A stretch of DNA of 64,000 nt from Candidatus Omnitrophota bacterium (GCA_035403965.1 DAONGE010000002.1:466-64465); one strand, 5' to 3'. Shown: positions 34,333 through 51,631, numbered from the stretch's first letter. The notes: generated by a model not told the origin, from the sequence alone. Translations and numbers: made by a program.

Positions 34333-35793
34333 ATGTCACAAAAAAGTCTTAAGATCGCGTTTTTGCAGACGGGAGATGTCCCGTACCTGGGGATAATGAG
34401 CTTGTCCGCTGTCCTCAAAAAAAGAGGGTTCGTAACAGATGTGTTTTGTATCGGTATAGATAACGATATCGAGAACAAGATAATCGGATCCGGTGCGGAT
34501 ATCCTTGCCTGTAGCGCCATGACCCCTACTTTTTCCGGCATACGTAAAGTATATAGCGCCGTGAAAAAGAAAGCCCCTCATATTTATACCATATTGGGCG
34601 GGCCGCATAGCACCTTTTTCCCGAACGTTCTTCATGAAGACAAAGACCTGGATGCGATATGTATCGGCGAGGGAGAAGGCGCATTGATAGAACTTGCTAC
34701 GGCTTTACGCGATAAGAGCCCCAGGACCGATATCAAGAACATCTGGTTCAAGGATAAAGGACGCATAGTGGAGAACGAGATAAGGGACCTTATCGACGAC
34801 CTTGACGCTCTTCCTTTCCTGGACAGAGACGTGTTCTTTGAGAAGTATCCTTTTATGGCGGCAGGAACGGTACGTTTCATAACGGCCAGAGGCTGTCCCT
34901 TCCGGTGCACATATTGCTTTAATATCGGCATGCAAAGATTGTATAAAGGCAAAGGGAACTGGGTCAGATATCACAGTATAGAAAGAAGTCTTTCGGAAAT
35001 AAAGGATATTAAAGAAAGATATCCGCTTAAGTGGGTCTCTTTTATGGATGATACGTTCAACCTGGATAAAAAAAGGCTGAAAGAGTTTCTGCTTAGGTAT
35101 AAAAAAGAAATCGATGTGCCTTTTCTCTGCCAGCTCAGGGTGGATGTCACGGAAGAAGAGCAGATAGAATGGCTTAAGAACGCCGGAGTGTCGCGCATAA
35201 CCATAGGGATAGAACATGGGAACGAGACCGTCAGGAAGAACATCTTGTCGAGGAACATTAGCAACGAACAGATCCTTAACTGCGCGAAATGGATCAATGA
35301 ACGGAAAGTCCGTCTTACTACGCAGAACCTGATAGGATTGCCGTGGGAGACTGTCGATACGGCGCTTGAGACGATAAAGATAAATGCTAAAATAAAACCG
35401 GAGATCGCCAACGTTAACATACTTAACCCGTATCCTGGCACGGCGATATACAGCTTGCTGGAAAAAGAAGGATTATTGGCGGACGATTTCGATTTTAACG
35501 CGCTTTTGGACCACAGTAACTCTTATAGCAATTCACACGCCAGGATACATAGCTATGTTAAGAACAAGGTGATGCCGCAGCTTATAAGTTTACGTTGTTT
35601 TTTCTCGGTTCTTATCGCGTGCCCGTGGCTTGAGCCGCTCGTGCGGTTGCTGATAAAAATACGATATAACCGGGTCTATGAGTTCATATGGCAAGTGAGC
35701 ACCGGGACTTTTAGGGTGTCTTGGAAATACGGCGGATGGCGCGACCGAAAAGTGTTGATGAGAAAACTTTTTGCAGTTCTGATCAAAGGATAA
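34333..35793 (+). CDS. B12-binding domain radical SAM enzyme
   Basis: 486 aa; N-terminal cobalamin-binding Rossmann-like domain; CPFRCTYC (CxxxCxxC) radical SAM core. Confidence 0.85.
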   Translation: MSQKSLKIAFLQTGDVPYLGIMSLSAVLKKRGFVTDVFCIGIDNDIENKIIGSGADILACSAMTPTFSGIRKVYSAVKKKAPHIYTILGGPHSTFFPNVLHEDKDLDAICIGEGEGALIELATALRDKSPRTDIKNIWFKDKGRIVENEIRDLIDDLDALPFLDRDVFFEKYPFMAAGTVRFITARGCPFRCTYCFNIGMQRLYKGKGNWVRYHSIERSLSEIKDIKERYPLKWVSFMDDTFNLDKKRLKEFLLRYKKEIDVPFLCQLRVDVTEEEQIEWLKNAGVSRITIGIEHGNETVRKNILSRNISNEQILNCAKWINERKVRLTTQNLIGLPWETVDTALETIKINAKIKPEIANVNILNPYPGTAIYSLLEKEGLLADDFDFNALLDHSNSYSNSHARIHSYVKNKVMPQLISLRCFFSVLIACPWLEPLVRLLIKIRYNRVYEFIWQVSTGTFRVSWKYGGWRDRKVLMRKLFAVLIKG

Positions 35794-35809: not shown

Positions 35810-36061
35810 ATGGAGATAAACGAGAACGAAGTATATACCGTGCAGGAGGTGCAGAAGATCCTTAAAGTGAGCCCCAGCACGTCGATGAGGCTCATAAAAA
35901 AAGGCATAATCAGAGCCGCCAAAGTCGGGAAACAATACAGAATACTGGGCAAAGAACTGTTAAGGCTGGTCTCTCCGACGTTGGAAGACAAAGTGGGTAA
36001 AATATACAATAAAGGACGTCATTGGCTGCATGAGGACGATGATAAGGCAGAGAGCATATGA
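35810..36061 (+). CDS. Excisionase-family helix-turn-helix DNA-binding protein
   Basis: 83 aa; VYTVQEVQKILKVSPSTSMRLIKKG matches the MerR-like/excisionase HTH (TIGR01764-type). Confidence 0.6.
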   Translation: MEINENEVYTVQEVQKILKVSPSTSMRLIKKGIIRAAKVGKQYRILGKELLRLVSPTLEDKVGKIYNKGRHWLHEDDDKAESI

Positions 36062-37056
36062 GAGCCAGAGGGAAAAAGGTATTGGTGACGGGATCGGAAG
36101 GATTTATTGGGTCGCATCTGGTGGAAGGGCTTCTTGATGCCGGATATAAAGTACGGGCCTTCGTATTATATAATTCGTTCAATGCCTGGGGTTGGCTAGA
36201 TACTTTTTCAAAAGACCGGATGAAGAATGTAGAAGTATTTACGGGAGATGTAAGGGATCCTAACGGTGTGAGAAAAGCAGTAGAAGGGGTTGATACGATC
36301 TTTCACCTTGCGGCGCTGATCGGCATCCCTTTTTCATATAATTCCCCGGATACTTATGTTGACACGAATGTAAAGGGAACTCTCAATATTTTGCAGGCGG
36401 CGAGGATGTGCGGGACAAGAAGAATATTGATCACCAGTACTTCCGAGGTTTACGGGACGGCCAAATATATGCCGATAGACGAGAAACATCCTTTACAGGG
36501 CCAATCTCCATACAGTGCGACAAAGATTGCCGCGGATAAGATCTCGGAATCTTTTTACAGGTCGTTCGGATCGCCTGTCACTATCGTGCGGCCGTTCAAT
36601 ACGTACGGTCCCCGTCAGTCGGCCAGGGCCGTTATTCCGACGATAATCACGCAGCTTCTTGCCGGGAAAAAAGAGATCAGGTTAGGATCGACGTATACGA
36701 CGCGCGATCTTGTCTATGTAAAGGATACGGTAAAAGGGTTTTTGTCCATTGCCCGCGCCGACAATACGATCGGGGAGGAAATAAATATCGCCACGGGGAA
36801 AGGCCTGTCTATCGGGAAAATCGCCGAAAAAATAATAAACAGGATAAATCCTAAAACGAGGATAGTGTGTGATAAGGAAAGGGTCCGTCCGAAGAGAAGC
36901 GAAGTGGAGCATCTTTTAGGATCCAATAAAAAGATAAAAGAACTGGCGGGATGGAAACCGGAATATACGATAGATAGCGGGCTTGATGAAACTGTAAAAT
37001 GGTTTTCGGATGCAACGAATGTAAGAAACTACAAGGCGGATATATATAATGTCTGA
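36058..37056 (+). CDS. NAD-dependent NDP-sugar 4,6-dehydratase/epimerase (LegB/RfbB-like extended SDR)
   Basis: 332 aa; VTGSEGFIGSHL, STSEVYG, YSATKIAADK (YxxxK); RfbB/LegB-like dehydratase pattern. Confidence 0.7.
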   Translation: MRARGKKVLVTGSEGFIGSHLVEGLLDAGYKVRAFVLYNSFNAWGWLDTFSKDRMKNVEVFTGDVRDPNGVRKAVEGVDTIFHLAALIGIPFSYNSPDTYVDTNVKGTLNILQAARMCGTRRILITSTSEVYGTAKYMPIDEKHPLQGQSPYSATKIAADKISESFYRSFGSPVTIVRPFNTYGPRQSARAVIPTIITQLLAGKKEIRLGSTYTTRDLVYVKDTVKGFLSIARADNTIGEEINIATGKGLSIGKIAEKIINRINPKTRIVCDKERVRPKRSEVEHLLGSNKKIKELAGWKPEYTIDSGLDETVKWFSDATNVRNYKADIYNV

Positions 37057-38149
37057 GCGTATTTTTCTAGATGCCCCGGACATAGGAGTATTTGAAAAAA
37101 AGTATCTTTCTAAAGCCGTTGATTCGGGCTATGTATCAACGGTGGGGCCGTTCGTACCGGAATTCGAGAAGAAGTTCGCAAAATGTATAGGAACAAAGAA
37201 TGCGATTTCTACTCAAAGTGGGACTGCGGCCATTCATATGGCATTATATGAGATGAAAATTGGCAAAGGGGATGAGGTTATCGTGCCTGCTTTATCCTTT
37301 GTGGCAACCACAAATCCTGTGCTTTATGTCGGGGCAGAACCCGTGTTTGCCGATGTTGATCCGGACACATGGTGTATTTCGCCACTATCGATAGAAAAAC
37401 TTATTACAAAGAAAACGAAGGCGATCATTCCGGTTCATCTTTACGGAAACCCCTGCGATATGAAAACCATAAATCGTATCGCTAAGGAACATAAAATAAT
37501 GGTTATAGAAGATGCAACCGAAAGCCTTGGGGCTGTTTATTGCGGAAAATTTACCGGGGCACTGGGAAATTTTGGGTGTTTTAGCTTTAATGGAAATAAG
37601 ACCATAACTACCGGCGGAGGTGGTATGGTCGTAAGTGGCAACAAAGCGGCAATAGAGCACATAAAGTTTCTTGTTAACCAAGCCCGCGATGAGAAAAAAG
37701 GCTATTATCATCCGGAAATGGGATTTAACTATCGAATGACTAATATTGAGGCGGCACTTGGGCTTGCGCAGTTAGAACGGATGGAAAAGCTTCTTCAGAG
37801 GAAAAGAAGGATTAATGAGATATATCATGAAGAGCTTGATGGGAACGATAAAATATCGTTTCAGGGAGAATATGAGGGGGCGAAAAGTTCTGATTGGCTT
37901 AATAGCGTTCTGATCAGAGCCGATATTCGCCGAATGATAACGTTATTAAAAGAAAAAAATATTCCGGCAAGGCGGATATTCATGCCAATGACAATGTTCC
38001 CGTATTATCGTAATGCGAGGAAAGATAAACTAAGAAATACACTGGATATATATAAGAATGGCATCTGTTTGCCAAGCTCAACGCGGAACAGCGAGGATGA
38101 TATACGGTTTGTGTGCGATGTTATAAATAAAATACTTAAGGGCGCATGA
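37049..38149 (+). CDS. DegT-family NDP-4-keto-sugar aminotransferase (LegC/PglE-like)
   Basis: 366 aa; DegT fold; FSFNGNKTITTGGGG lysine region; follows the 4,6-dehydratase. Confidence 0.8.
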   Translation: MSERIFLDAPDIGVFEKKYLSKAVDSGYVSTVGPFVPEFEKKFAKCIGTKNAISTQSGTAAIHMALYEMKIGKGDEVIVPALSFVATTNPVLYVGAEPVFADVDPDTWCISPLSIEKLITKKTKAIIPVHLYGNPCDMKTINRIAKEHKIMVIEDATESLGAVYCGKFTGALGNFGCFSFNGNKTITTGGGGMVVSGNKAAIEHIKFLVNQARDEKKGYYHPEMGFNYRMTNIEAALGLAQLERMEKLLQRKRRINEIYHEELDGNDKISFQGEYEGAKSSDWLNSVLIRADIRRMITLLKEKNIPARRIFMPMTMFPYYRNARKDKLRNTLDIYKNGICLPSSTRNSEDDIRFVCDVINKILKGA

Positions 38150-38793
38150 TGAAAAAGAATAAAGATATAATCTTAATCGGTGGCGGAGGACATGCCAGAG
38201 TGATAATGGATGCTATCCTGTCGGGCGGAGTTTTTAAGATAAAAGGGATAGTTGATCCCGCGATGGGAAAAGGGACCATGGTTGCAGGGTATAAGGTTTT
38301 GGGAGGGGATGAGATCCTTGGGGAAATATTTTCTTCAGGCGTTCGCAACGCTATTGTAGCGGTTGGTTCTGTAAAACCATCAGAATTAAGAAAGAAACTT
38401 TATGAAAAAGCCAGGAAGATCGGTTTTAATTTTCCGGTAGTGATACATCCCTCTGCAGTTATCGCACGGGATGTTTTAATTGAGGAAGGAACATTTGTCG
38501 CCCCGTCAGCCACTGTAAATACCGGAAGTCGAATCGGTAAAAACGCAATAATAAACACATCGTCGTCTATCGACCATGATTGCTCCATCGGGGATTTTGT
38601 ACACATAGCTCCGGGGGTTGTATTATCCGGGGAAGTATGTGTTGGGTCGGGGACGCATGTGGGCACGGGGGCTGTTGTTGTTAACGATATTAGAATTGGG
38701 GAAAACTGTTTTATATCTGCCGGGCACAGGGTGTCCGTGGATTTGCGCGAGGGGATGAAACATTCCATGACTTTTAGGATGAAGGGAAAGTAA
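38146..38793 (+). CDS. Hexapeptide-repeat sugar N-acetyltransferase (PglD/LegH/NeuD family)
   Basis: 215 aa; N-terminal Rossmann-like ILIGGGGHARV then left-handed beta-helix hexapeptide repeats. Confidence 0.8.
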   Translation: MMKKNKDIILIGGGGHARVIMDAILSGGVFKIKGIVDPAMGKGTMVAGYKVLGGDEILGEIFSSGVRNAIVAVGSVKPSELRKKLYEKARKIGFNFPVVIHPSAVIARDVLIEEGTFVAPSATVNTGSRIGKNAIINTSSSIDHDCSIGDFVHIAPGVVLSGEVCVGSGTHVGTGAVVVNDIRIGENCFISAGHRVSVDLREGMKHSMTFRMKGK

Positions 38794-38804: not shown

Positions 38805-39479
38805 ATGCCAAAAGTGCTATTTATTGCATGCCACCCGGATGATGAGACGCTGGGATGCGGTGGGACAATATTAAAGCATAAAGCCCTTGGCGATGAGATA
38901 TATTGGGCTATTTTGACCAACATAGACGAAAATAACGGATGGCCGAAGGATAAGGTTCTATCGAGACAATGTGAGATATCTGCAGTGGCAAGAGCATACG
39001 GTTTTAAAAAAGTGTTCAAACTTGATTTTCCGACGACAAAGTTAGATGCAATACCCATGAATACCATTGTGTCGGCAATTTCAAACACATTAAATGAAAT
39101 AAAACCGGAAGTCATATATGTTCCTAATAAGAGTGATATTCATAGTGACCACAAAACCACTTTTGACGCAGTTATGAGCTGCACAAAAACTTTCAGGTTC
39201 CCATATATCAAACGGGTTTTAATGTATGAGTGTCTTTCAGAAACAGAATTTGCCCCGGCTATTTCTAATTTGGCTTTTACGCCGAATGTATTTGTAAATA
39301 TAAGTGCGTACGTGTCAGAAAAAATAAAGATAATGAACATGTACGAAGGCGAAATGGGTGCGTTTCCATTTCCAAGAAGTGCGGAAAACATTGAGGCATT
39401 AGCAAGGTATCGCGGGGCGACGGCGGGTTTTTGCGGCGCAGAAGCTTTTGTTCTTATAAAGGAAAGATGTGATGATTAA
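38805..39479 (+). CDS. PIG-L/LmbE-family N-acetyl-sugar deacetylase
   Basis: 224 aa; N-terminal HPDDE motif (ACHPDDETLGCGG) and downstream His/Asp metal ligands. Confidence 0.75.
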   Translation: MPKVLFIACHPDDETLGCGGTILKHKALGDEIYWAILTNIDENNGWPKDKVLSRQCEISAVARAYGFKKVFKLDFPTTKLDAIPMNTIVSAISNTLNEIKPEVIYVPNKSDIHSDHKTTFDAVMSCTKTFRFPYIKRVLMYECLSETEFAPAISNLAFTPNVFVNISAYVSEKIKIMNMYEGEMGAFPFPRSAENIEALARYRGATAGFCGAEAFVLIKERCDD

Positions 39480-40494
39480 AAAAAATAGAACAATGATAAT
39501 CGCCGAGGCCGGTGTTAACCACAACGGGGAGATCGAACTGGCTAAAAAACTAATAGACGCGGCGGCTTTTGCAGGTGCCGACGCTGTGAAGTTTCAGCTT
39601 TTTGTCCCGGAATTATTGGTTTCTCCGAAAGCCCAGATGTCATTATATCAGCAAAATAATATGGGAAAAAAAATGTCCCAGATGGAAATGTTAAAACAAT
39701 ATGTATTTGACGAAAAGATTTTAATAAAACTGATAGAATATGCCAAAAAAAGACGGATATCTCTTTTGATAACCCCGTTTGATAATGAAAGCCTGAAAGT
39801 GGTCAAACGGCTTGGGCGGCCATACATTAAGGTTGATTCCGGCGCTATAACAGATCATCCATTCCTTGAAAAGATAGCCAAAACAGGCATCCCGGTTATA
39901 TTGTCTACGGGGGCTTCGACAGTAAAAGAGATAAAAGAAGCGGTGGCGGTGATAGAACAATATCACAGGAAGATCTGTATACTCCATTGTACTTCATTGT
40001 ATCCCTCCCCGTATAATAAAATAAACCTGAATGCAATTGTTACAATGATGAAAGCATTTAAATATCCGGTTGGATATTCAGACCATTCTATCGGCATTGA
40101 AGTAGCGATAGCTGCCGTTGCTATGGGGGCTAAGGTTATAGAGAAACATTTTACACTAAATAAAAAAATGAAAGGTCCGGATCATAAAGCGTCGATAGAT
40201 CCGTATGAACTGGTCGCAATGGTTAGAGCTATAAGAAATGTGGAAGATGCATTAGGATCTTTTGAAAAAAAACCTTCACCGGATGAAAAGACAGTGATGA
40301 AAAATGGGAGAAGAAGCATTGTTGCTTTGCAGAATATGGATAAAGGCACGATTTTGCGAGAAAAAGATCTGGCTGTTAGGCGTCCGGGTACCGGTATTTC
40401 TCCGAAATATTTCAAGAGGGTAATTGGTAAGGTTTTATTACGTAAAGTTGATAGAGATGAACCTCTAATGTTGTCACATATAGGAGATATCTGA
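39469..40494 (+). CDS. NeuB-family nonulosonic acid synthase (N-acetylneuraminate/legionaminate synthase-like)
   Basis: 341 aa; IIAEAGVNHNGEIELAKKLIDAA..GADAVKFQ TIM-barrel N-terminus and C-terminal SAF/antifreeze-like domain. Confidence 0.85.
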   Translation: MMIKKNRTMIIAEAGVNHNGEIELAKKLIDAAAFAGADAVKFQLFVPELLVSPKAQMSLYQQNNMGKKMSQMEMLKQYVFDEKILIKLIEYAKKRRISLLITPFDNESLKVVKRLGRPYIKVDSGAITDHPFLEKIAKTGIPVILSTGASTVKEIKEAVAVIEQYHRKICILHCTSLYPSPYNKINLNAIVTMMKAFKYPVGYSDHSIGIEVAIAAVAMGAKVIEKHFTLNKKMKGPDHKASIDPYELVAMVRAIRNVEDALGSFEKKPSPDEKTVMKNGRRSIVALQNMDKGTILREKDLAVRRPGTGISPKYFKRVIGKVLLRKVDRDEPLMLSHIGDI

Positions 40495-40496
40495 AA

Positions 40497-42326
40497 ATGG
40501 ATAGTTTACTGATCACAGTGCCGGTCTCAAGTCCCTTGCATCCTCAGGCGATGTTGCCTTGTTTGCAAGCTTTTTTGGAAAAAAAGGGTTTTTCCGTTAA
40601 GAGCATAGATTCAAATATTGATTTTTTTTGGTATATGCTGGGCAAAGATTATGACATATCGACGCTTAAGGCATTCGATGAAAGCCCCATTAACGTATTG
40701 TCATTTTATAATAAGATGGAAAGTGATCTCGCTAAAAAATCAGTTAAATATAAAGGGTGTAGGGTTGGGCTTCGTAGTGTGAAAGTTTGTTATAATAGAA
40801 CTTCTTTTGAAGACGTGGCAAAGGCGGTATATGATACCGAAGCCAATCCGTTTATTGAATATTATGACCAGCTTATAGAAAAAAAGATAGCACCTGAAAG
40901 TCCCAAAATAGTTGGGATTTCCATAACTTTTCAAGATCAGATCGTCGCGGCATTTACCTTAGCGCGTATGCTTAGAGAGAAAATGCCTTCGGTAAAAATA
41001 GTTCTTGGCGGACAAATGATTACGCGGTGCCATGACACTCTTTTTGGTTCCGACGAACTGAGAACATTTTGGGACTATCTTGTGTTATGGGAGGGGGAAG
41101 TGCCGCTATGGGATATACACGAAGAGATCATTAACCATAAAGAGGTGGAGTATATAAACGTGTTGGTAAATGGGAAACCATTCAAGGGTATTGACAGAAG
41201 CAAAAAAGGGCTTTCGGCGAATGAACAGTATCCGCCGGTTTTTAAGGATATAGAGTTCGATAGGTATTTTTATTCTGATTTTCTTATACCGATACAAACA
41301 TCGAGAAGCTGTTATGGCAAATGTGAGTTTTGTGCTATTCCCTTTGGTGCAAATTCTAATTTTAGGACAAAAACTGCCGATCAGTTATTGGAACATGTAA
41401 TGCGGATAAAAGAAGAAGTAAAGGCCAAATACGGGCGAGATGCCATATTCTTTAAATTTATGGATGATACTTCTTTGTCGAAAGTGCTATTCGAATTTTC
41501 AAAAAAAGTGGAAAAGATGGAAGTGAATATTAAATGGGAAGCATTTGTGCGACTTGATGAGGATTATGCGGACGACGAATTTATGGCCCAGCTTTACAGG
41601 GGTGGCTGCCGGAAACTTTGCTGGGGTTTAGAATCCAGCGATCCCGATATTCTTGAAAAGATGAACAAAAAAAATACCAATAATCGGAGCACCAGAATTT
41701 TAAACGCTTCAGCGAAAGCGGGCATTCTGAATTTTTGTTTCGTCCTTGTGGGCTTCCCGGGCGAGACACAGAAACAGAGAGATAATATGACGGAATACAT
41801 TATAAACAATCCGGACGTGCATGTTTTAACGATATCGACGTTTGATTTTACGAGGTTTTCAAATATGCACATAAATTATTCATATCCAAATAAATACGGC
41901 CTTTTTAGCGAAAAAGCTCAAGGTTTTGAAGTCAGGTTGCCATATGTAATTGATGGGTCAGATAATTGGAAGCATATGATAGTTACACAGGCTCATGAGA
42001 TGCTTTTTAAAATAATTTCAAAGCGCCCGGATATCGGTTTTATGAGCTTGTTTCCGGATCAGATCAGAATGACGTATTGCGATATTTTTGGGAATGGATG
42101 GGGAAGGGAATTTGTAAAAAAATATGGTGAAGATAATATCAGATCTTTTTTAACCGGAACGGAAGATTTTATTAAAGCTTTCAAGGATGGGGATGAATTG
42201 GATGTGTCAAAATTACCCGAACCTATTCTGAGGGAATATCATCGCGAAATAGAAGATTTAGAGGCGATCAGACAAGCTATTGAAAGAAGAAAAGCCTATG
42301 AAAATAGGCGGATGGATCAGGTATGA
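40497..42326 (+). CDS. B12-binding domain radical SAM enzyme (second copy)
   Basis: 609 aa; N-terminal B12-binding-like region; CYGKCEFC CxxxCxxC radical SAM motif. Confidence 0.75.
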   Translation: MDSLLITVPVSSPLHPQAMLPCLQAFLEKKGFSVKSIDSNIDFFWYMLGKDYDISTLKAFDESPINVLSFYNKMESDLAKKSVKYKGCRVGLRSVKVCYNRTSFEDVAKAVYDTEANPFIEYYDQLIEKKIAPESPKIVGISITFQDQIVAAFTLARMLREKMPSVKIVLGGQMITRCHDTLFGSDELRTFWDYLVLWEGEVPLWDIHEEIINHKEVEYINVLVNGKPFKGIDRSKKGLSANEQYPPVFKDIEFDRYFYSDFLIPIQTSRSCYGKCEFCAIPFGANSNFRTKTADQLLEHVMRIKEEVKAKYGRDAIFFKFMDDTSLSKVLFEFSKKVEKMEVNIKWEAFVRLDEDYADDEFMAQLYRGGCRKLCWGLESSDPDILEKMNKKNTNNRSTRILNASAKAGILNFCFVLVGFPGETQKQRDNMTEYIINNPDVHVLTISTFDFTRFSNMHINYSYPNKYGLFSEKAQGFEVRLPYVIDGSDNWKHMIVTQAHEMLFKIISKRPDIGFMSLFPDQIRMTYCDIFGNGWGREFVKKYGEDNIRSFLTGTEDFIKAFKDGDELDVSKLPEPILREYHREIEDLEAIRQAIERRKAYENRRMDQV

Positions 42327-43465
42327 ATATAGAAAAATATATATTGTCGAAGAAGACTGTTTTAGACAGCGCATCACAGTGCCAATGGAAGGCGCGTTTA
42401 GACACGAAAATGGGATTTTTTAACGGAATTAAAGAGAAACCGCATGAGCTCTATCAATATTTTGAAAGAAGAGTGCGAACCGAAGAATTAAAAGCTTGGT
42501 ATAGCTCTCCGGATCCCGGTGACCTTTTCCAGGGAACATCTATATCGTCGCTGGTTATCCCTGCAACATTCAAAAGGCCGTTGGAGATAAAAGGAGTAGA
42601 ACAGCTGGTAGAGGAGATAGCGGATTGCTATATCAGGTATCACGATAAATATGCTAAAGCCGTAAGTGATGCGATTGTTGAGAGCGTTGAGGGATGGATA
42701 AAAGAGGGGCTATTTTATGGAGTTGTTTTGCCGTCAAAGATCATTTCGCAGGCTTTTGATCTAGCTGTTGACACTCGGTCACTGGTAGTTGATATCGAAG
42801 GTGACGCGATCGATCCGCATGAAATTACCTCGTATCCCGCAGAGATAAGAGAAAAATATTTTAACTCTGTAAGGCCTGGTATTGAATGTTTAAGCGACAT
42901 GAATATTAGCAGACAGGAGTTTGAGGCGAGTTTAATTCTTGCCGATGTAAGCAAACCAAAAATACAAAAGTATAAAGGAAAGGCGCTCTTGGGCCCTATT
43001 AAATGTAACGAGATCGCGGCATATATGGCGCAGGATATAAAAGCCCTGATACGGTCTAAGACGAAAGGGAGGATTTCTCCGCGCAGTTTTGAAGTGGTCA
43101 TATATGATACCGATACACCATATACATATCATCATGTAATGGAGTATAACGGTGATCCAGACGCTCCCTGTTTACCCGGATTGACGCTTCTTGGAGCCAG
43201 CGGTTCAATAGATGCTTTTAGATGGTTGTATGCGTATAGAGTGAGCCTTGTTGCGCAAAAAATGATGAAAGGGTCTTTGTATTCGCAGTACAAGGCATCA
43301 TTTACGCCATTTGTTTTTATGGGAGTATTGGTGCCACGTGATGCGGAGATACTTATAGATATGAATGACCTGGATCTATTGCGCTACGAAGGTAATATTT
43401 CACCAAGAGTTGAGTTTGGATATCTTGCGGAAGAGATGATGAATTATATTAAAAGGGGTAAATAA
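42323..43465 (+). CDS. Hypothetical protein (380 aa), translationally coupled to the upstream radical SAM gene
   Basis: ATGA overlap with the upstream gene; no motif I can recognise by eye. Confidence 0.5.
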   Translation: MNIEKYILSKKTVLDSASQCQWKARLDTKMGFFNGIKEKPHELYQYFERRVRTEELKAWYSSPDPGDLFQGTSISSLVIPATFKRPLEIKGVEQLVEEIADCYIRYHDKYAKAVSDAIVESVEGWIKEGLFYGVVLPSKIISQAFDLAVDTRSLVVDIEGDAIDPHEITSYPAEIREKYFNSVRPGIECLSDMNISRQEFEASLILADVSKPKIQKYKGKALLGPIKCNEIAAYMAQDIKALIRSKTKGRISPRSFEVVIYDTDTPYTYHHVMEYNGDPDAPCLPGLTLLGASGSIDAFRWLYAYRVSLVAQKMMKGSLYSQYKASFTPFVFMGVLVPRDAEILIDMNDLDLLRYEGNISPRVEFGYLAEEMMNYIKRGK

Positions 43466-44215
43466 ATGTGTACCATCGGGACCGATCGGTCGTTAAATAT
43501 TATTTTTAAGAATCGGGACAAAAATATCGATACTACAGAGGAGGTTATACACGGCAAAGGGTTTCTTGCGGTAAGGACCAAAGGCGCCGGATATTACAGT
43601 TTGGGTTTCAATGATATGGGTTGTGGGTTTGTTAGTGCGGCTGTAAATTCCCCGGAATGGACGTATTTGGCAGAGAATGGGAAGGCCGAAGCCGCCAAAG
43701 AGCTGGCACAAAAAGAAAATGAGGGACTTGTGTCCCCGACGGTTATAGTTTCGTCCATGTTGTCGGAGATCAGTACGGTAGATGAATGGATAAATAGTAT
43801 TGAACGGCAGAAAGTTGCATATAAGGGTTATAAAGTATTAATGGCGGATAAGTGCAAAGCCTGCATAGTTGAAACGTATAAAAACAAAGTGGTTGTTACC
43901 GATTTTCCGTCTGGCAAGGGGGAAAGTACCAATCATTTTTTTAATATTAAATTTGGTCCGATTAAGTATGAAGATTATCCCAGTTCCTTCGACAGGTATA
44001 AATATATAACAGAGAAAATGAGATCTGTAAAAAAGATAGAAGATGTATTTTTGGTTTTAAATCCTAAGGATCCGTCGGATAGAGAGCGTATCTGGAGATC
44101 TGGTAAAAACGGAAAATTTTTTACTATTTCTTCAAGTGTGGTTGATTTGAAAAGGAAATGTTTGTATTTCCTGAAAAATGGCGAAAATCAGTATAAAAAA
44201 ACTTGTATTCAATAG
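43466..44215 (+). CDS. Hypothetical protein with an Met-Cys-Thr N-terminus (possible Ntn-hydrolase/acyl-transferase-type fold)
   Basis: 249 aa; begins MCTIG..; Cys2 as N-terminal nucleophile is typical of choloylglycine-hydrolase/IAT-like Ntn enzymes; assignment is tentative. Confidence 0.3.
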   Translation: MCTIGTDRSLNIIFKNRDKNIDTTEEVIHGKGFLAVRTKGAGYYSLGFNDMGCGFVSAAVNSPEWTYLAENGKAEAAKELAQKENEGLVSPTVIVSSMLSEISTVDEWINSIERQKVAYKGYKVLMADKCKACIVETYKNKVVVTDFPSGKGESTNHFFNIKFGPIKYEDYPSSFDRYKYITEKMRSVKKIEDVFLVLNPKDPSDRERIWRSGKNGKFFTISSSVVDLKRKCLYFLKNGENQYKKTCIQ

Positions 44216-44223
44216 GAGGAATC

Positions 44224-44988
44224 ATGAATAAGGGATTACACACAGATGTGTTTAAAGGAAATGCCAAAAAGATCGAGATGTCACGGTATATAGATCTTGA
44301 TATATACCACAGAGTTGAAAGAACCCATCCATTTTATGTTGAGATGGTCGGCGAAATGTGTGATCAGATCTCGAATAATGTAGAAGCGGTCGCTCAGCCA
44401 AGGATACTTGAGATAGGTGCGGGAACCGGGCTTCTCACTGCCGAGATATTGAAGCTCGGTAATATGAGAATAGATGCGGTAGAGTTGGATGAGGAGTGTT
44501 GTACCATACTTGAGAAATATGTGAGTGATCCCAGATGTAAATGTATTTGCGATAACGCGGTCACCTTTTCAGATACCGAAAAGTATGATGTTGTAGTTTC
44601 GTCTTTCGCCCATGATCATATTCATTATGATCAAAGATATGATTTTGCTAAGAATATTAAAAAGAATCTAAAACCGGGAGGCGTATATATAATGGGCGGC
44701 GAAGTTCTGCCATATTATACGAACGACATTGAGAGAGCAAAAGCCCTGTACGATTATCATGGTTTTATTGTAGATAAAGCTCTTAGAGACAGAAACTTTG
44801 AAGTGGCGCAGATCGAGATAAACGCGTTAAAGTCAGGGTTGGATATGACGGGTGATTTTAAAAGGCATGAGGCTATGTTCGAGGAGGAAATGGGTTCCTC
44901 CGGGTTGAATATGATTGTTAAGAAAAAAATAGGGCCGGTCGATAAAAATACGGTCGGCGGAGTTTTTGTCTATGTATACCAGAAATAA
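44224..44988 (+). CDS. Class I SAM-dependent methyltransferase
   Basis: AGGAGG RBS then ATG 44224; motif I ILEIGAGTGLLT, post-I acidic residue, motif II DVVVSS. Confidence 0.8.
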   Translation: MNKGLHTDVFKGNAKKIEMSRYIDLDIYHRVERTHPFYVEMVGEMCDQISNNVEAVAQPRILEIGAGTGLLTAEILKLGNMRIDAVELDEECCTILEKYVSDPRCKCICDNAVTFSDTEKYDVVVSSFAHDHIHYDQRYDFAKNIKKNLKPGGVYIMGGEVLPYYTNDIERAKALYDYHGFIVDKALRDRNFEVAQIEINALKSGLDMTGDFKRHEAMFEEEMGSSGLNMIVKKKIGPVDKNTVGGVFVYVYQK

Positions 44989-45214
44989 AAAGGATCTTGA
45001 TATTGCCATAAAAAAGATATTTGCGGAGACGTTTAACATCGCGGATGTCAGCGACGATGACTCTATAGAGACGATATCTTTGTGGGATTCTATGGGGCAT
45101 ATGGAGCTGATCTCCAGGATAGAAAACGATTTTAATGTTCGCATTGATCCGGAGGATATTATTAAACTAGTATCAGTAACGAGTATAAAAGAATTCTTGA
45201 GGGGGAAAGAATGA
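44966..45214 (+). CDS. Acyl/aminoacyl carrier protein (DltC/ACP-like)
   Basis: 82 aa; four-helix size; phosphopantetheine-attachment motif LWDSMGHMEL (DSx). Confidence 0.7.
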   Translation: MSMYTRNKKDLDIAIKKIFAETFNIADVSDDDSIETISLWDSMGHMELISRIENDFNVRIDPEDIIKLVSVTSIKEFLRGKE

Positions 45215-46692
45215 TTGGAACTTTTTATGAAAAGCTGATGGCCCCGTTTTTGAGATCTACCCGTATATTCTATAAGTATTTCGACGAGGAATATACATAT
45301 GGCCGGGCTTATTCCCTGATGAAGATAATAAATCATACGCTGAACCGTAATAATAAAAACCGTAAAAAGATAGTAGTATACGGGGGGAAAAGTTTTCCGG
45401 TATATTGCGCGATTTATAGCATTATATTGTCGGATAATGTGTGGATACCTATAACGCCGGGCATTCCGCCGGATAGACTTATGGCCATGATGGAGTTGCT
45501 TCATCCGGATATTTTTTTATATGAAGAGGAGATCCCTCAAGGGGTTGTCGAATCTGCGGGTAAAATCAAAATGGAAGTTATATCTTTGACTGATGTGGCG
45601 GAACGGAAAGAAAGTATGGATTTCGAAATGTGTAAATATTCCCCGAACGATTGGGCATATGTGATGTTCACTTCCGGGTCCACGGGTGTTCCTAAAGGCG
45701 TTCCGATGACCCATTTAAACTATATAAACTTCATAAATAATGCGATGGAGATATTACCTTTTCAAAAAGGTGAGATTTTTTCGGATTATCATGATTTTGC
45801 GTTTGATATTTCCATATTTTATATTTTCTGTGCGCCGCTTACCGAGGGTACTATTGCGCCGATAAGGAAAAAAGAAGAGCGCATGTTCCCGCTCAATCAC
45901 ATACAAAAGAACAAAATAACGGTATGGTCGTCGGTTCCGTCCGTAATAGCCTGCATACAGCGGCTCCGTCCCGCGGGCAAACTTGAAAACAGTATCAGGA
46001 TAATGTTTCTGTGCGGAGAGCCCTTCAGCCTGAGCATATTAAAATATTGCTATGAGAATTTAGATATCAAGGAAGTATATGATTTTTATGGTTTGACCGA
46101 AACCGGTGTTGAGAATTTTTACCATCATTGCTCTATAGACGATCTTGAACGCTTTAGGGAAAAGGGATTTGTCCCAATAGGCAGGCCATTGAAAGGGAAC
46201 GATATAAAGGTGACGGAGGAAAAAGAATTGCTTTTGAGCGGGTGCCAGGTGACGCCGGGATACTTAGGTAACATTGAACAGGGGCGTTTCGAGACAATAG
46301 AAGGGGATCGCTGGTATCACACCGGTGATATAGTTGAAAAATTTGAAGATGTTTATTTTTGTAAAGGGCGCATTGATTCCCAGGTGAAAATAAGCGGACA
46401 TAGGATAGAGCTGATGGATATTGAGGTGCATATAAAACAATTTCCCGGGATAAAAGAGGCGATATGTTTTGTGACCGAACAGACGATGGGTGTGAAACGG
46501 TTGGCATGTGCTGTAGAAACACAAGATCAGGCCGATACAGTTATTCCAGGGCTCGAAGGATGGCTTAGAGGCAAACTGCCGGAATATATGGTTCCCAAAG
46601 TGATACATCATATTAAGGCGATGCCTACTAATAATAACGGCAAGATAGACAGAAAAGCTATTCGGGAGATGTTTTCCCAAGGTGCGCGGTGA
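45211..46692 (+). CDS. AMP-dependent synthetase/ligase (adenylation enzyme, DltA/NRPS-A-domain-like) that loads the adjacent carrier protein
   Basis: 493 aa; core motifs YVMFTSGSTGVPKGV (A3), WYHTGD (A7), GRIDSQVKISGHRIEL (A8); start overlaps the ACP stop (ATGA). Confidence 0.85.
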   Translation: MIGTFYEKLMAPFLRSTRIFYKYFDEEYTYGRAYSLMKIINHTLNRNNKNRKKIVVYGGKSFPVYCAIYSIILSDNVWIPITPGIPPDRLMAMMELLHPDIFLYEEEIPQGVVESAGKIKMEVISLTDVAERKESMDFEMCKYSPNDWAYVMFTSGSTGVPKGVPMTHLNYINFINNAMEILPFQKGEIFSDYHDFAFDISIFYIFCAPLTEGTIAPIRKKEERMFPLNHIQKNKITVWSSVPSVIACIQRLRPAGKLENSIRIMFLCGEPFSLSILKYCYENLDIKEVYDFYGLTETGVENFYHHCSIDDLERFREKGFVPIGRPLKGNDIKVTEEKELLLSGCQVTPGYLGNIEQGRFETIEGDRWYHTGDIVEKFEDVYFCKGRIDSQVKISGHRIELMDIEVHIKQFPGIKEAICFVTEQTMGVKRLACAVETQDQADTVIPGLEGWLRGKLPEYMVPKVIHHIKAMPTNNNGKIDRKAIREMFSQGAR

Positions 46693-46696
46693 AATA

Positions 46697-47548
46697 ATGC
46701 CTAACGGTAAACCGATCGAAATAGCGTGTGTTCAAACGCCCAAAGAATTAATTGGGATCAAAGCGGGAGTGCAGGCCCTTTTCTTTGACGTTTTTGGGAA
46801 ACGTTTAAATGATAAAGCATGGGAACATTATTATCTGAACTCTCCGTATGGTAATGCTGCGGTGTTTATTGCGATGGTTGGGTCGAGAATAATCGCACAC
46901 GGAGGTATAATTCCGCAATTATTGGGTTCCGTAACGGGCGAAAGTATTCCATATTATCTGCAGACGGCTATTATGGTCGATGAAAAATACAGAAACCTTA
47001 TCGTATTTAAAAAACTCATGGATGCGATACATTCATATGTCGAAGCGAAAAAGACCTTTGTCATAGCTTTCCCTAATGATCATTCGTTCGGGCCATTCGT
47101 CAAACTTCTTAAATGGAAAAAAATCACAGAGTACAACATATCGCAGTATGAAGAATGTAATTCAAACTGTTCCGGGGCGACGGGTAGCGCGGGGGAGTAT
47201 AGATATGACATTAAGATCGATAGACAATTTCTTTCCTGGCGCGGAGAATTAAATGGTATTAAAAAAGAAGAAACATCTAATTATAAAATGATCTGCAAAG
47301 AATATGAAGGAGCGCTTGAGATATTATATGTGGATGGGCACGGAATTGATTTTAGGGAGATCATGAAAAGAACGGCGCATAAACGGATAAATATACCGGA
47401 TTGTTTCTTGCCGTATGGAAAAATGGACGGGCTGATACGCGTAGGACAGGTTGGCATACCGCAGAGGTTTTGCGCATATCCGGGAGAGTCCGATAAAATG
47501 AAATATTCCGATATCAAACCGTCATTATTGTTATCGGATGTTTTTTAA
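46697..47548 (+). CDS. Hypothetical protein, possible GNAT-fold/FemAB-like acyltransferase
   Basis: 284 aa from ATG 46697; alternating beta/alpha pattern reminiscent of GNAT; weak. Confidence 0.3.
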   Translation: MPNGKPIEIACVQTPKELIGIKAGVQALFFDVFGKRLNDKAWEHYYLNSPYGNAAVFIAMVGSRIIAHGGIIPQLLGSVTGESIPYYLQTAIMVDEKYRNLIVFKKLMDAIHSYVEAKKTFVIAFPNDHSFGPFVKLLKWKKITEYNISQYEECNSNCSGATGSAGEYRYDIKIDRQFLSWRGELNGIKKEETSNYKMICKEYEGALEILYVDGHGIDFREIMKRTAHKRINIPDCFLPYGKMDGLIRVGQVGIPQRFCAYPGESDKMKYSDIKPSLLLSDVF

Positions 47549-47558
47549 GGGGGATTGA

Positions 47559-48728
47559 ATGCGAAAAAAAATAGTGGCATTATCGGGCATACGTTCAGAG
47601 TATGATATATTGTTTCCGGTCATAGAAGCCATAAAAAGTGATGATGCTTTTGACGTTTCAATAATTGCCTGTGGAGCGCATCTTTCAGAGAGTTTTGGAT
47701 ATACCGTTAAAGATATTGAAAAGGATGGAGTCAGGATAGATGCCCGTATAAATAATCTTTTGGATAGTGATAGTGAGATTGGTAAGGCAAAAGGAGCCGG
47801 TTTGTTAGCGGTAGGGCTTAGCGATGTGCTCGATAGGCTTAGGCCGGATTATTTAATGGTTGTAGGAGATAGGGAGGAATCGGTTATAGCAGGAGTTATA
47901 TGTACATATTTAGGTATACCATTTGTGCATTTGTGCGGAGGAGATAGAACGGATCCTAAAGCAGGAGATGTCGATGAGCCTATCCGACATGCTGCCTCGA
48001 AAATGGCAGCGCTCCATTTTACAATGAATGAGCAGCACCGGGAAAGATTGATCAGGATGGGTGAGGAGCCATGGCGTGTTCATAATGTCGGAGATCCTGG
48101 GTTGGACAGGTTTGCTAAAGTAGAGAAAATGGAAAAACATGAGGTTTTGGGATATTTCGGTTTTAATGCAATCCCGGAGAAGCCCCTTATTCTTGTATTG
48201 CAGCACGTTATCAGCGGGGAGGCGGAGAAAGCACATGAACAGATCGAAGTTACCCTGGAGGCTGTGACAAAATTAAAAGCGAATTGTGTGATCAATTATC
48301 CGAATAGTGACATGGGAAGCCGTGCGATCATAAACGTTATAGAGAGTTATAGAGAATATCCGAATGTGAAGATAACTAAAAATATCCCAAGAAAGGAATT
48401 TGTAAATTTATTGAGGAATGTCGATCTTGTTGTGGGGAATTCAAGTATGTCTATTTTAGAAGGATGCTTTTTGAGGTTTCCCGCAATAAATGTCGGTGAA
48501 AGAAATCAGGATAGAATGAACGGCGGAAATGTTGTTTTTGTCGAAGAGAATTTCGCAAAAATAAAGGAAACAGCCGAGCGAATATTATCGGATAAAGTGT
48601 ATTCCGGAGAGCTTAAAGCATGCCGGCCGGTATATGGTGACGGGAATGCTTCAAAAAGAATTGTAGAAATACTTAAAGGGATCCCGAAGACGAGAACGGA
48701 ATTACTCGCAAAAAGGATGACCTATTGA
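47559..48728 (+). CDS. UDP/GDP-N-acetylglucosamine 2-epimerase (hydrolysing), NeuC/LegG family
   Basis: 389 aa; KIVALSGIRSEYDILFPVIEAI N-terminus and HVE/GGDR motifs typical of hydrolysing 2-epimerases. Confidence 0.8.
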   Translation: MRKKIVALSGIRSEYDILFPVIEAIKSDDAFDVSIIACGAHLSESFGYTVKDIEKDGVRIDARINNLLDSDSEIGKAKGAGLLAVGLSDVLDRLRPDYLMVVGDREESVIAGVICTYLGIPFVHLCGGDRTDPKAGDVDEPIRHAASKMAALHFTMNEQHRERLIRMGEEPWRVHNVGDPGLDRFAKVEKMEKHEVLGYFGFNAIPEKPLILVLQHVISGEAEKAHEQIEVTLEAVTKLKANCVINYPNSDMGSRAIINVIESYREYPNVKITKNIPRKEFVNLLRNVDLVVGNSSMSILEGCFLRFPAINVGERNQDRMNGGNVVFVEENFAKIKETAERILSDKVYSGELKACRPVYGDGNASKRIVEILKGIPKTRTELLAKRMTY

Positions 48729-49810
48729 TCGTTAAGAATCGGAGGCACATAGTGGATCGAAAGAAAGAAATGAAGGAATATATAGACAATTTTAGGGATA
48801 TGCCGGATCGGCTGCTGAAATATAACGAGATTTTACTGGAAGGAGCGGATGCTACTCCCGAGTGCTATCAAGATACGTTATCATATCGGCGCATAGCCGT
48901 AGCACTTACAACGCGATGCAACCTGAACTGCAAATGGTGCTATCGGTTGGATCCGCAATATAAGGAAATACTGAATAAAGAACTTGATTTCGATACCTAT
49001 AAAAACTTTGTAGCAAATACTAAAGGGAAGTTCAGAATGGTCCACTTTGGCGGTCTGGGCGAACCGACGTTATATCCTAAGCTGATGGACATTATTAAAC
49101 TTTCCAAAAACCTCTCGGATAAGCTCAAAATAACCACTAATTGTGCAGCGGTGAAAGAAGAAGATATTCTTGAATATGTTTCAGCCGGATTGACGCATAT
49201 TGAGATAAGCGCGGATGCTTTTGAAAAAGATAAGCTATTGGAATACAGAGGGGTTGATATTGACAATATACATCGAATCGCCAAGTTTATAAAAGAAAAA
49301 ACCCCGCTACATTTGCAGATCAACTCGGTTGTTTCTACAAAAAATTGCAAAGACCTCATTCGTATTGTTGATACGTTTGAAGATATCCCAAACCTTGATG
49401 TGTGGCATACGATCCCTCTTTTTGAGACGGCGCAGATGATATCTCAGAATATCAAACCATTAAGCATAGCGGATTATCAAGAGTTGTTGTTGTACGTTGA
49501 AAATGAAATAAAAAAGAAAGGTCTTAAGTGGAAGGTTTCTCCGAACGCACACGGCGTGCGCCTTGATCCGGTTATTGAGATGAAAAGAAGGCGGAATATA
49601 TGCTTTTCATGTTTTGAGGATCCATACATAAGCGTGACGGGACGATTAAATTATTGTTCCAGGCAGGAATATAGTTCTGTTGCGGATATTTCCGAAGGGT
49701 TCGAAAAATCCTGGAATCACCCGGAGCTTTTAAAGTTTCGTAAAGATATGCTGAATGGAAAATATCCGGAATATTGCGGAAGACTGTGTGTGCTGAAAAG
49801 GAAAAGTTGA
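48725..49810 (+). CDS. Radical SAM enzyme with C-terminal SPASM/twitch-like Cys cluster
   Basis: 361 aa; CNLNCKWC CxxxCxxC; C-terminal CFSCFED...YCSRQ...CGRLC auxiliary cluster cysteines. Confidence 0.7.
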   Translation: MIVKNRRHIVDRKKEMKEYIDNFRDMPDRLLKYNEILLEGADATPECYQDTLSYRRIAVALTTRCNLNCKWCYRLDPQYKEILNKELDFDTYKNFVANTKGKFRMVHFGGLGEPTLYPKLMDIIKLSKNLSDKLKITTNCAAVKEEDILEYVSAGLTHIEISADAFEKDKLLEYRGVDIDNIHRIAKFIKEKTPLHLQINSVVSTKNCKDLIRIVDTFEDIPNLDVWHTIPLFETAQMISQNIKPLSIADYQELLLYVENEIKKKGLKWKVSPNAHGVRLDPVIEMKRRRNICFSCFEDPYISVTGRLNYCSRQEYSSVADISEGFEKSWNHPELLKFRKDMLNGKYPEYCGRLCVLKRKS

Positions 49811-50911: not shown

Positions 50912-51631
50912 ATGTTCCGGGGGAAAAAAATACTTGCAATTGTGCCGGCAAGGAGCGGAAGCAAAGGGTTGCCAAACAAGAATATCAAGCTATTCTGCGG
51001 GAAACCACTTATATGCTGGACGATATCCGAGGCCAAGCGTAGTAAATATATTGATGATGTGACCGTAAGTACGGACAGCCCGCGGATAGCGGAAATATCA
51101 AAAAAAGCCGGCGCAATAGTACCTTTTTTACGCCCGCCCGAATTAGCGACTGATACAGCGTCGTCTATGGACGTGGTGTTTCATGCGATTAGTGAGTTTG
51201 AGAAAATAAACGGGCGATATGAAATCGTATTGCTTTTACAACCGACGTCGCCTTTAAGAGTATCGGAAGATATAGATAACGCCGTGGAACTGCTTATTAA
51301 ACAAAAGGCAAAAGCCATAGTTTCGTTGACGGAAGCGTTGGTGAATCCTTCGTGGGTGAATGTATTGCCAGCAAATGGGTGCATTAAAGATTTTTTGCAC
51401 TGTAGTGTCATCAATAAACGGAGACAGGTACTGCCAAAGTACTTCCAGCTTAACGGAGCGGTGTTTCTTGGTTACGCTAAATATTTGAAAGGTACAGGCA
51501 CTTTTTATACTGCTAAGACATATGCGTACATAATGCCGCGGGAAAGATCGGTGGATATAGATGATATTTTTGATTTCAAACTGGCTGAAATAATCATGAG
51601 AGAAAGAATGAAAAATAAAAGGAGAAAGTGA
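50912..51631 (+). CDS. Acylneuraminate cytidylyltransferase-family protein (CMP-nonulosonic acid synthetase, NeuA/LegF-like)
   Basis: 239 aa; ILAIVPARSGSKGLPNKNI P-loop-like motif of the CMP-NeuAc synthetase family. Confidence 0.8.
   Translation: MFRGKKILAIVPARSGSKGLPNKNIKLFCGKPLICWTISEAKRSKYIDDVTVSTDSPRIAEISKKAGAIVPFLRPPELATDTASSMDVVFHAISEFEKINGRYEIVLLLQPTSPLRVSEDIDNAVELLIKQKAKAIVSLTEALVNPSWVNVLPANGCIKDFLHCSVINKRRQVLPKYFQLNGAVFLGYAKYLKGTGTFYTAKTYAYIMPRERSVDIDDIFDFKLAEIIMRERMKNKRRK

Follow-up and report, generated by a model that had tools for sequence, protein, structure and literature searches.

What a free-standing carrier protein and an amino-acid-activating enzyme might do among the genes for a sialic-acid-like sugar is the question raised by a 64,000-nucleotide stretch of Candidatus Omnitrophota bacterium DNA (GCA_035403965.1, DAONGE010000002.1:466-64465), which is referred to here as the window. 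Two consecutive genes, encoding a small predicted phosphopantetheine carrier and a stand-alone adenylating enzyme of the ANL family (hereafter the ligase), are placed between the legionaminic acid (Leg) genes LegI/NeuB and LegG/NeuC. The original prediction read this pair as a DltA/DltC-like source of a carrier-tethered acyl or aminoacyl group, perhaps D-alanyl, that is later moved onto an amino group of a nonulosonic acid precursor. Our analysis points to a carrier-tethered aminoacyl donor for sugar N-acylation, with the pair acting as the loading unit of a thiotemplated side-chain pathway, similar to type II non-ribosomal peptide synthetase (NRPS) systems, that would decorate an aminosugar; in the window this would most likely be a precursor of legionaminic acid. 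We assign this reading a probability of roughly 0.6. The pair, earlier considered in isolation, is real and forms the centre of a conserved five- to six-gene cassette that occurs in many uncultured bacteria.

The carrier had been described as an 82-aa protein with a DSM phosphopantetheine site, coupled through an ATGA junction to an ANL enzyme with intact A3, A7 and A8 motifs, and the Pfam scan and the translation bore out both the coordinates and the description, with a reservation about the carrier's length. The open reading frame (ORF) as listed opens with a TTG at 44966 and encodes 82 aa, and an ATG at 44972 would give 80 aa. A GGAG-like motif lies 9 nt upstream of the ATG and just 3 nt from the TTG, and homologous carriers are 75–85 aa long, so that the protein probably comprises 80 aa. 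Folding of the RNA around the carrier start revealed nothing notable (z 0.40). The carrier matched PF00550 (PP-binding; E 4.9e-7, 30.3 bits, gathering score 20.8) as well as generic acyl carrier protein (ACP) models in NCBIfam. Its Ser is located within WDSMGH, and the motif W/I-DS-[MLF]-x-H was kept in 34 homologous carriers; the loss of this residue, which would have spoken against a carrier, was not seen. On these grounds the protein is a predicted phosphopantetheine carrier with its conserved Ser in a D-S-[LMF] motif where helix II begins. An accidental ORF was considered and rejected, since the ORF is conserved and scores above the Pfam threshold.

The TGA stop of the carrier gene overlaps the ATG of the ligase gene at 45211–45214. 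The ligase (493 aa) contains PF00501 (E 1.5e-42, 146 bits vs. a gathering score of 29.9) and the C-terminal domain PF13193 (25.9 bits vs. 24.5), and its translation displays the core motifs A3 (FTSGSTGVPKG), A4 (FDIS), A5 (YGLTE), A7 (YHTGD), A8 (GRIDSQVKISGHRIEL) and A10 (NGKIDRK). It is 100% identical to an NCBI entry titled only 'AMP-binding protein'. The ligase presumably loads the carrier.

Within the ANL family, the highest-ranking NCBIfam models for the ligase were two DltA models (NF003417, 227.1 bits; TIGR01734, 222.6 bits) and the amino-acid adenylation domain model TIGR01733 (224.4 bits). All three scores were under the curated cut-offs of 476, 559.85 and 317.4, respectively, and acyl-CoA ligase models scored 125 bits or less. 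The closest relatives among PDB sequences were two adenylation (A) domains of LgrA (linear gramicidin synthetase), followed by Staphylococcus aureus DltA and the L-Pro-activating PltF, with further matches to other DltAs and to stand-alone A domains such as CytC1. Judged from these similarities, the ligase belongs to the amino-acid-adenylating (NRPS/DltA) branch of the ANL family and not to the fatty-acyl-CoA ligases, and is a member of a divergent stand-alone clade.

The specificity pocket was read, in GrsA numbering, from an alignment of 106 family members with GrsA-PheA (1AMU, residues 182–526) and the DltA proteins of Bacillus subtilis and Bacillus cereus. The code of the ligase was D235 I236 F239 S278 F299 C301 F322 V330 E331 K517 (DIFSFCFVEK); at position 331, a gap introduced by MAFFT after GrsA Ile330 gave C, and the ungapped register (TETGVE/TETTIC) gives Glu. 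An identical code was present in 81 of the 106 members, and because it is near-invariant, the whole family likely shares one conserved substrate. Asp235, which contacts the alpha-amino group, and Lys517, which contacts the carboxylate, were invariant (106/106), indicating that this substrate is an alpha-amino acid. The pocket, lined by three Phe residues, is probably one for a small residue such as Gly, Ala or similar. Cys301 occurs in the sequence LCGE in the ligase and FCGE in DltA, and by our reading of the PDB match a Cys is also present in the Gly-activating A2 domain of LgrA. D-alanine was not specifically indicated: the ligase agrees with the DltA code (DLMT(M/L)CTVAK) at Asp235, Cys301, Val330 and Lys517 and departs from it at six of the ten positions (236, 239, 278, 299, 322 and 331, occupied by I, F, S, F, F and E).

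These results bear on two alternatives. The ligase could be of the fatty acyl-AMP ligase (FAAL) or acyl-ACP synthetase type and supply a fatty acyl or hydroxyacyl group (3-hydroxybutyryl, lipid) for the glycan. N-hydroxybutyryl nonulosonates exist, which counts in its favour. So does the occurrence of a carrier with a CoA-ligase-like protein in enterobacterial flagellin glycosylation islands, whose Acp/CaiC/LuxCE genes were read as fatty-acid related (PMC4875605). Nevertheless, the invariant Asp235, the conserved Lys517 and the lead of the amino-acid adenylation models (224–227 bits) over the acyl-CoA ligase models make this explanation improbable. A pocket matching fatty-acyl-CoA synthetases that act on CoA, the other result that would have told against the original prediction, was likewise not seen.

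A genuine Dlt system, with DltA as the ligase, DltC as the carrier and extracytoplasmic esterification of an envelope polymer with D-alanine, would account for the leading position of the DltA models, for the match to S. aureus and Bacillus DltA structures (E 2e-49 to 3e-38) and for the retained Cys. However, the ligase scored far under the DltA cut-offs (476 and 560), LgrA A domains fit it at least as well as DltA does, the pocket differs as described, and no DltC model was among the NCBIfam matches of the carrier. Neither the MBOAT protein DltB nor DltD was found among the window ORFs scanned, an LptD-like gene points to a diderm envelope, and the conserved partners, described below, are cytoplasmic tailoring enzymes, which are foreign to Dlt, and sugar N-acyltransferases. 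We therefore regard a Dlt system as highly improbable. The pair seems DltA/DltC-like in logic, combining a stand-alone ANL amino-acid-adenylating enzyme with a small carrier for the aminoacyl decoration of an envelope glycopolymer, whereas the predicted reaction is the cytoplasmic N-acylation of a sugar precursor rather than an extracytoplasmic esterification. The earlier comparison with DltA/DltC held for the enzyme branch and not for the system.

The strongest available evidence that a carrier-bound acyl group is passed to a sugar amine came from related loci. Of these, 66 were collected (designated by L numbers; duplicates included), in part from metagenome contigs with an alignment restricted to the ligase specificity region; a full-length ligase alignment on genome contigs returned mostly generic NRPS A domains, in which AY[IV]MFTSGS is universal, and two true family loci. 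Carriers with the same DS motif were detected by iterative search in 34 of the 66 loci. Directly downstream of the ligase gene in L107, L111/L112 and L141, and in truncated form in L099, the carrier is fused to an AAC(3)-like Antibiotic_NAT domain (PF02522, E 6e-20 to 1.5e-27); in L100 it is fused to a NeuD-like hexapeptide acyltransferase, whereas L152 has a separate Antibiotic_NAT gene immediately beside that of the carrier. In loci with at least 1.2 kb downstream, an N-acyltransferase was located within 1.5 kb of the ligase in 18 of 36 cases, and these enzymes belonged to three unrelated folds (8 hexapeptide, 6 GNAT and 4 AAC(3)-like). Such non-orthologous displacement at one position, together with the domain fusions, argues for transfer from carrier to sugar amine, and the fusions lend this part of the original prediction independent support. 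In the window the position is occupied by an Eis-like tandem-GNAT protein.

In loci of the alphaproteobacterial type, the ligase gene is followed by a second type of small ORF (approximately 94–110 aa, motif IDSLG/IDSMG), and next in line is a gene for a PglD/NeuD-like hexapeptide acyltransferase. This ORF type had no Pfam match at E <= 0.1; its motif and position suggest that it is probably a divergent carrier.

The partners of the pair were conserved as well. When duplicates were set aside and at least 5 kb of sequence was required upstream of the ligase, 16 loci remained; a B12-binding radical S-adenosylmethionine (SAM) enzyme, a 380-aa protein and a class I SAM methyltransferase were each present in 15 of them, and a C45-family protein in 14. 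Of the 8 loci with 5 kb on either flank, all had the first three proteins and 7 the C45-family protein. Bit scores of the window proteins in the related loci were 640–700 for the B12-radical SAM enzyme, 400–458 for the 380-aa protein and 260–316 for the methyltransferase. The loci derive from several phyla and throughout form same-strand sugar operons, in which the cassette lies among aminosugar or nonulosonate genes. Ligase homologs were numerous (45–69% identity), and their named sources were Omnitrophota, Nitrospirae, Poribacteria, Lentisphaerae, Magnetovibrio and Rhodospirillales; none of the cassette homologs in our searches was named from Clostridium, Escherichia coli or Vibrio. As a separate observation, several named sources of homologs are magnetotactic or related to magnetotactic bacteria (Magnetovibrio, Magnetococcales, Nitrospirae, Omnitrophota), which may reflect either sampling bias or a real ecological association.

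The 609-aa B12-radical SAM enzyme had PhpK and a ribosomally synthesized and post-translationally modified peptide (RiPP) C-methyltransferase as its nearest models, and CxxxCxxC was seen in its translation. The C45 protein scored 31.7 bits against PF03417 (gathering score 23.2) and 43 against NF040521 (cut-off 85). Every homologous C45 domain begins with (M)CT...KNRDK, and by analogy with N-terminal nucleophile (Ntn) amidases and acyl-CoA:6-aminopenicillanic acid (6-APA) acyltransferase, this N-terminal Cys is the predicted nucleophile. Comparison of the GNAT-like and C45 proteins with PDB sequences using phmmer gave no match. In most related loci, the C45 domain and the methyltransferase form a single protein of approximately 500 aa, with fusions in at least 15 loci, which ties the two steps together. 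In the window the two genes are separate and overlap by 13 nt (44203–44215), which could mean that they are truly split or could stem from a frameshift or a mistake in the assembly.

The 380-aa protein had no Pfam or NCBIfam match, and approximately 174 homologs were found, none with a functional annotation. Its AlphaFold model, built with 32 homologs, had a predicted local distance difference test score (pLDDT) of 90 and a predicted template modelling score (pTM) of 0.92, and Foldseek ranked entries of CofE, the F420:gamma-glutamyl ligase, alone, with probabilities of 0.95–0.98. In a constrained alignment with CofE, collinear motifs were recognised by eye, without statistical support (SKIISQA/STVISKA, ADVS/IDAS, YDT/TDT and GASG/GISG). 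We take Asp109, Asp150, Thr151 and Glu208 to be the metal- and nucleotide-binding residues of Archaeoglobus fulgidus CofE. The D-x-S and D-T motifs, again collinear by eye, cover the metal-ligand positions among these, and an equivalent of Glu208 was not evident. Based on the modelled fold, the protein is a probable carboxylate-amine ligase of a new family.

All ORFs from 34333 to past 63535 are on the plus strand, with short or overlapping junctions (Table 1), and the region is predicted to hold a full legionaminic acid gene set: LegB, LegC, LegH/NeuD, LegG/NeuC, LegI/NeuB, a PtmE-like protein and a CMP-nonulosonate synthetase. A PIG-L/LmbE-type deacetylase gene is included, and PIG-L genes also occur in L002, L090, L134 and L153. 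In the window, and likewise in L090, L134 and L153 (second Omnitrophota genome), the genes of a complete Leg set and of a PIG-L deacetylase are interspersed with those of the cassette. In Leg biosynthesis, N5 comes from the acetamido group derived from GlcNAc and N7 from the amine introduced by LegC. The presence of a deacetylase together with a retained NeuD/LegH therefore suggests an N5-aminoacyl, N7-acetyl substitution.

The pathway that we propose would begin with activation of a small alpha-amino acid by the ligase and its thioesterification to the holo-carrier; family and motifs of the ligase are observed, and the substrate is deduced from the pocket. Since the pair sits within the conserved cassette, what is transferred is probably an amino acid that has been tailored, or else a small peptide. 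Tailoring by the cassette partners could take place on the carrier or after transfer: the B12-radical SAM enzyme and the methyltransferase would add C- and/or N-methyl groups, and the CofE-fold enzyme would form an additional amide bond. The C45 domain may remove or transfer an acyl group, and its linkage with the methyltransferase in one protein would be consistent with an amine being deprotected and then methylated at once. Judging from its position and from the fusions, the adjacent N-acyltransferase (the Eis-like GNAT in the window, AAC(3)-like or hexapeptide enzymes elsewhere) would pass the acyl group, bound as a phosphopantetheine thioester, on to a free amine of the sugar. That amine, destined to become N5 of legionaminic acid, would be exposed by the PIG-L deacetylase, and NeuD/LegH would acetylate N7. 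The predicted product is a sugar of the Leg5(aminoacyl, possibly N- or C-methylated)7Ac type for an envelope glycan.

Another possibility is that the cassette makes a free small molecule (for instance a modified amino acid or a metabolite resembling a dipeptide) and is merely sited in glycan loci, or that the aminoacyl group ends up on a hydroxyl, a carboxyl or a non-nonulosonate aminosugar. The cassette's own amide ligase-like protein, methylase and amidase would suit such a product, and no NeuB or NeuC gene was found within 10 kb in the long loci L003, L116/L151 and L131/L152. We nonetheless consider this explanation unlikely. The cassette was always part of sugar operons with all genes on one strand, fusions join the carrier to N-acyltransferases of the sugar type, and neither a condensation nor a thioesterase domain that could release a free product was found. 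Moreover, LegI, LegG and the PIG-L deacetylase are interleaved with the cassette in the window and in L090, L134 and L153.

Several points weigh against a carrier-tethered aminoacyl donor for legionaminic acid. A nonulosonate-specific marker was found in only 5 of the 11 related loci of at least 15 kb, and an aminosugar gene in 9 of the 11; the acceptor may therefore be another aminosugar in some lineages. A nonulosonate precursor as acceptor, as originally predicted, is likely in the window; only about half of the long related loci have such a marker within 10 kb. In the other half of the 36 loci, no N-acyltransferase could be recognised up to 1.5 kb from the ligase, and the window showed no gene for a phosphopantetheinyl transferase. 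The role of the C45 domain is ambiguous between transferase, deprotecting amidase and deacylase. The small-pocket reading draws on the three Phe and the DltA/LgrA-A2-type Cys, and DIFSFCFVEK fits no specificity code known to us. The relation of the 380-aa protein to CofE is at the level of the fold only, with motif collinearity judged by eye: Pfam at E <= 10 on 32 members and a family-profile hmmsearch against the PDB gave no match, and comparisons with A. fulgidus CofE by hhalign, and by local alignment judged on shuffled sequences, were negative or not significant.

Carrier-dependent acylation of glycans is itself already known, from Dlt, butirosin, LpxD of lipid A and the Acp/CaiC proteins of flagellin glycosylation islands (PMC4875605). 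The closest precedent for the cassette logic appears, by analogy, to be the butirosin side-chain pathway, in which the 4-amino-2-hydroxybutyrate (AHBA) side chain is built and tailored on the free carrier BtrI and lengthened by a non-NRPS amide ligase, before it is passed to the amine of an aminosugar and trimmed by amide cleavage (PMC7183216). Besides BtrI, the pathway includes the ATP-grasp ligase BtrJ, BtrK, BtrO/V, the transacylase BtrH and BtrG for deprotection. In the cassette, the carrier, the CofE-fold ligase, the N-acyltransferase and the C45 amidase, respectively, would take over these functions. Unlike in butirosin biosynthesis, the loader is an ANL A domain and not an ATP-grasp enzyme (BtrJ), the amide ligase has a CofE fold, a B12-radical SAM enzyme and an N-methyltransferase are added, and the target is a nonulosonate or aminosugar nucleotide and not an aminoglycoside. 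Pfam scans of the operon detected neither an ATP-grasp loader nor the BtrH (PF14399) or BtrG families.

The type II NRPS precursor pathways PltF/PltL and CytC1/CytC2 likewise combine a free A domain, a free carrier and tailoring enzymes, and PltF and CytC1 were among the best relatives of the ligase; the cassette, in contrast, is without NRPS or polyketide synthase (PKS) condensation machinery, and offloading to a sugar amine by a GNAT, AAC(3) or left-handed beta-helix (LbH) enzyme is predicted. The LbH enzyme LpxD and GNATs of the LuxI/FeeM type transfer acyl groups from carrier-protein thioesters to amines, and LbH and GNAT genes also flank the cassette carrier. Their donor is a fatty acyl-ACP of primary metabolism, whereas that of the cassette would be a dedicated aminoacyl-carrier.

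Aminoacyl-substituted legionaminic acids do occur in nature, as the original prediction stated: Leg5GluNMe7Ac in the flagellin of Clostridium botulinum, and Leg5Ac7Ala and Leg5Ac7AcAla in E. coli O161 and Vibrio vulnificus. The deacetylase, N-methyltransferase, gamma-glutamyl-ligase fold and LegH associated with the cassette would fit an N5-aminoacyl-N7-acetyl sugar. For E. coli O161, in contrast, a single 'Lea3 alanyltransferase' was proposed (PMC7685785). Literature searches that paired nonulosonic acids, including pseudaminic and legionaminic acid, with DltA, carrier proteins, adenylation, radical SAM enzymes or cobalamin turned up no description of the cassette, and no paper linking any nonulosonate to an A domain/carrier cassette, a B12-radical SAM enzyme or a CofE-like protein. 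A 2026 Campylobacter paper made no mention of Cj1307 or Cj1308.

Taken to its full extent, the comparison leads to a more specific and rather doubtful proposal, in which six genes (A domain, carrier, B12-radical SAM methylase, CofE-fold ligase, amidase::N-methyltransferase and interchangeable N-acyltransferase) form a widespread thiotemplated cassette. On its carrier, a side chain consisting of a methylated amino acid or a short peptide would be assembled and then attached to legionaminic acid, at N5, or to related aminosugars, maybe by a butirosin-like sequence of protection, transfer, deprotection and then methylation.

The N-acyl groups of nonulosonic acids shape antigenicity, recognition by phages and the immune system, and flagellar or envelope function. 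The genes for aminoacyl substituents are essentially unknown, and the cassette offers a concrete, conserved set of candidates. If the six-gene proposal is correct, it would provide the first genetic basis for aminoacyl nonulosonates and a new use of the CofE fold beyond cofactor F420 biosynthesis. The CofE-like amide ligase assignment is also the first structural hypothesis for a family that lacks a functional annotation and a Pfam domain. More generally, interchangeable N-acyltransferase folds appear to connect the chemistry of carrier proteins to sugar-nucleotide pathways, and the cassette could serve in glyco-engineering of modified sialic-acid-like sugars.

Table 1. Features of the legionaminic acid region of the window, with the second small-ORF type of related loci in the last row.
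Feature	Coordinates	Strand	Basis
B12-radical SAM enzyme, HpnJ/BchE-like	34333–35793	+	
Helix-turn-helix (HTH) protein	35810 (start)	+	
LegB	36058 (start)	+	TIGR04180, 486.5 vs. cut-off 475
LegC	37049 (start)	+	TIGR04181, 411 vs. cut-off 420 (near cut-off)
NeuD/LegH-type acetyltransferase	38146 (start); LegB-LegC-NeuD span 36058–38793	+	TIGR03570, 189.7 vs. 160.8
PIG-L/LmbE-type deacetylase	38805–39479	+	BshB1 model, 1.1e-16, below cut-off
NeuB/LegI nonulosonate synthase	39469–40494	+	TIGR03569, 417.9 vs. cut-off 399.65
B12-binding radical SAM enzyme, class B methyltransferase-like, 609 aa	40497–42326	+	PF04055 + PF02310
CofE-fold protein, 380 aa, putative amide-bond ligase	42323–43465	+	Fold match
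C45/AAT-like Ntn enzyme, N-terminal Cys (MCT...KNRDK)	43466–44215	+	PF03417
Class I SAM methyltransferase	44203–44988	+	Methyltransf_25, _11, _12; TTG start
Predicted phosphopantetheine carrier, stand-alone	44972–45214 (ORF as listed 44966–45214)	+	PF00550, Ser motif
Predicted NRPS-type amino-acid adenylating enzyme (A domain), stand-alone	45211–46692	+	PF00501 + PF13193
Eis-like tandem-GNAT N-acyltransferase, candidate transferase to sugar amine	46682–47548	+	GNAT/Eis/AAC(2') fold
NeuC/LegG hydrolysing 2-epimerase	47559–48728	+	TIGR03568, 369.5 vs. cut-off 235.9
Radical SAM/SPASM protein	48725–49810	+	
CBS + nucleotidyltransferase protein (PtmE-like)	49818 (start)	+	PF00483 + CBS domains
CMP-nonulosonate synthetase	50912–51631	+	PseF-type cytidylyltransferase model, 169.8, below cut-off
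Pseudaminic acid set	51628 onward	+	
Second small-ORF type, probable divergent carrier	L001 11479–11763; L002 11445–11780; L129, L132, L135, L136 ~10900–11220		

Some related loci carry further genes for N-substituents. HisH/HisF-like genes and an unannotated gene for a protein of approximately 373–385 aa adjoin the cassette in L003/L004 (15157–17644) and L153 (18359–21064), a set that resembles the WbuXYZ-type set for acetamidino formation. Such loci may combine several N-substituent chemistries. The Leg operon of the window itself includes two more radical SAM enzymes, the HpnJ/BchE-like B12 enzyme and the SPASM-type protein, relatives of which recur in related loci, among them L119 (530 bits) and L133 (566 and 521 bits).

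The pseudaminic acid (Pse) branch extends to 61695 and comprises PseB, PseC, a PseG-like protein and PseI (456 bits, above cut-off), without a PseH-type GNAT. PseH is replaced by a PaaK-like CoA ligase (57240–58574), an LpxD-like hexapeptide N-acyltransferase (58595–59503, above the NF002060 cut-off) and a radical SAM enzyme resembling KamA-family 2,3-aminomutases (59508–60632). Through this branch, an N-substituent other than acetyl (beta-aminoacyl?) may be placed on Pse by a second route that needs no carrier. Directly after PseI, at 61700–63535, is a gene for a 611-aa transferase of the LIC12162 family (TIGR04331, 330 bits vs. a cut-off of 225; no Pfam domain), a candidate nonulosonate transferase of the envelope glycan.

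No flagellin gene was found among the window ORFs scanned. The remainder of the window holds envelope-glycan genes, encoding the LptD-like protein, UDP-sugar dehydrogenases, a carbamoyltransferase, a GDP-mannose dehydratase, aminotransferases, family 2 glycosyltransferases (GT2), a Wzy_C protein and PMT_2 proteins in addition to the LIC12162-family transferase. Upstream of the LptD-like gene and the glycan locus, two adjoining genes for GGDEF diguanylate cyclases, one of them with a GAF domain, are located at 8850–11668.

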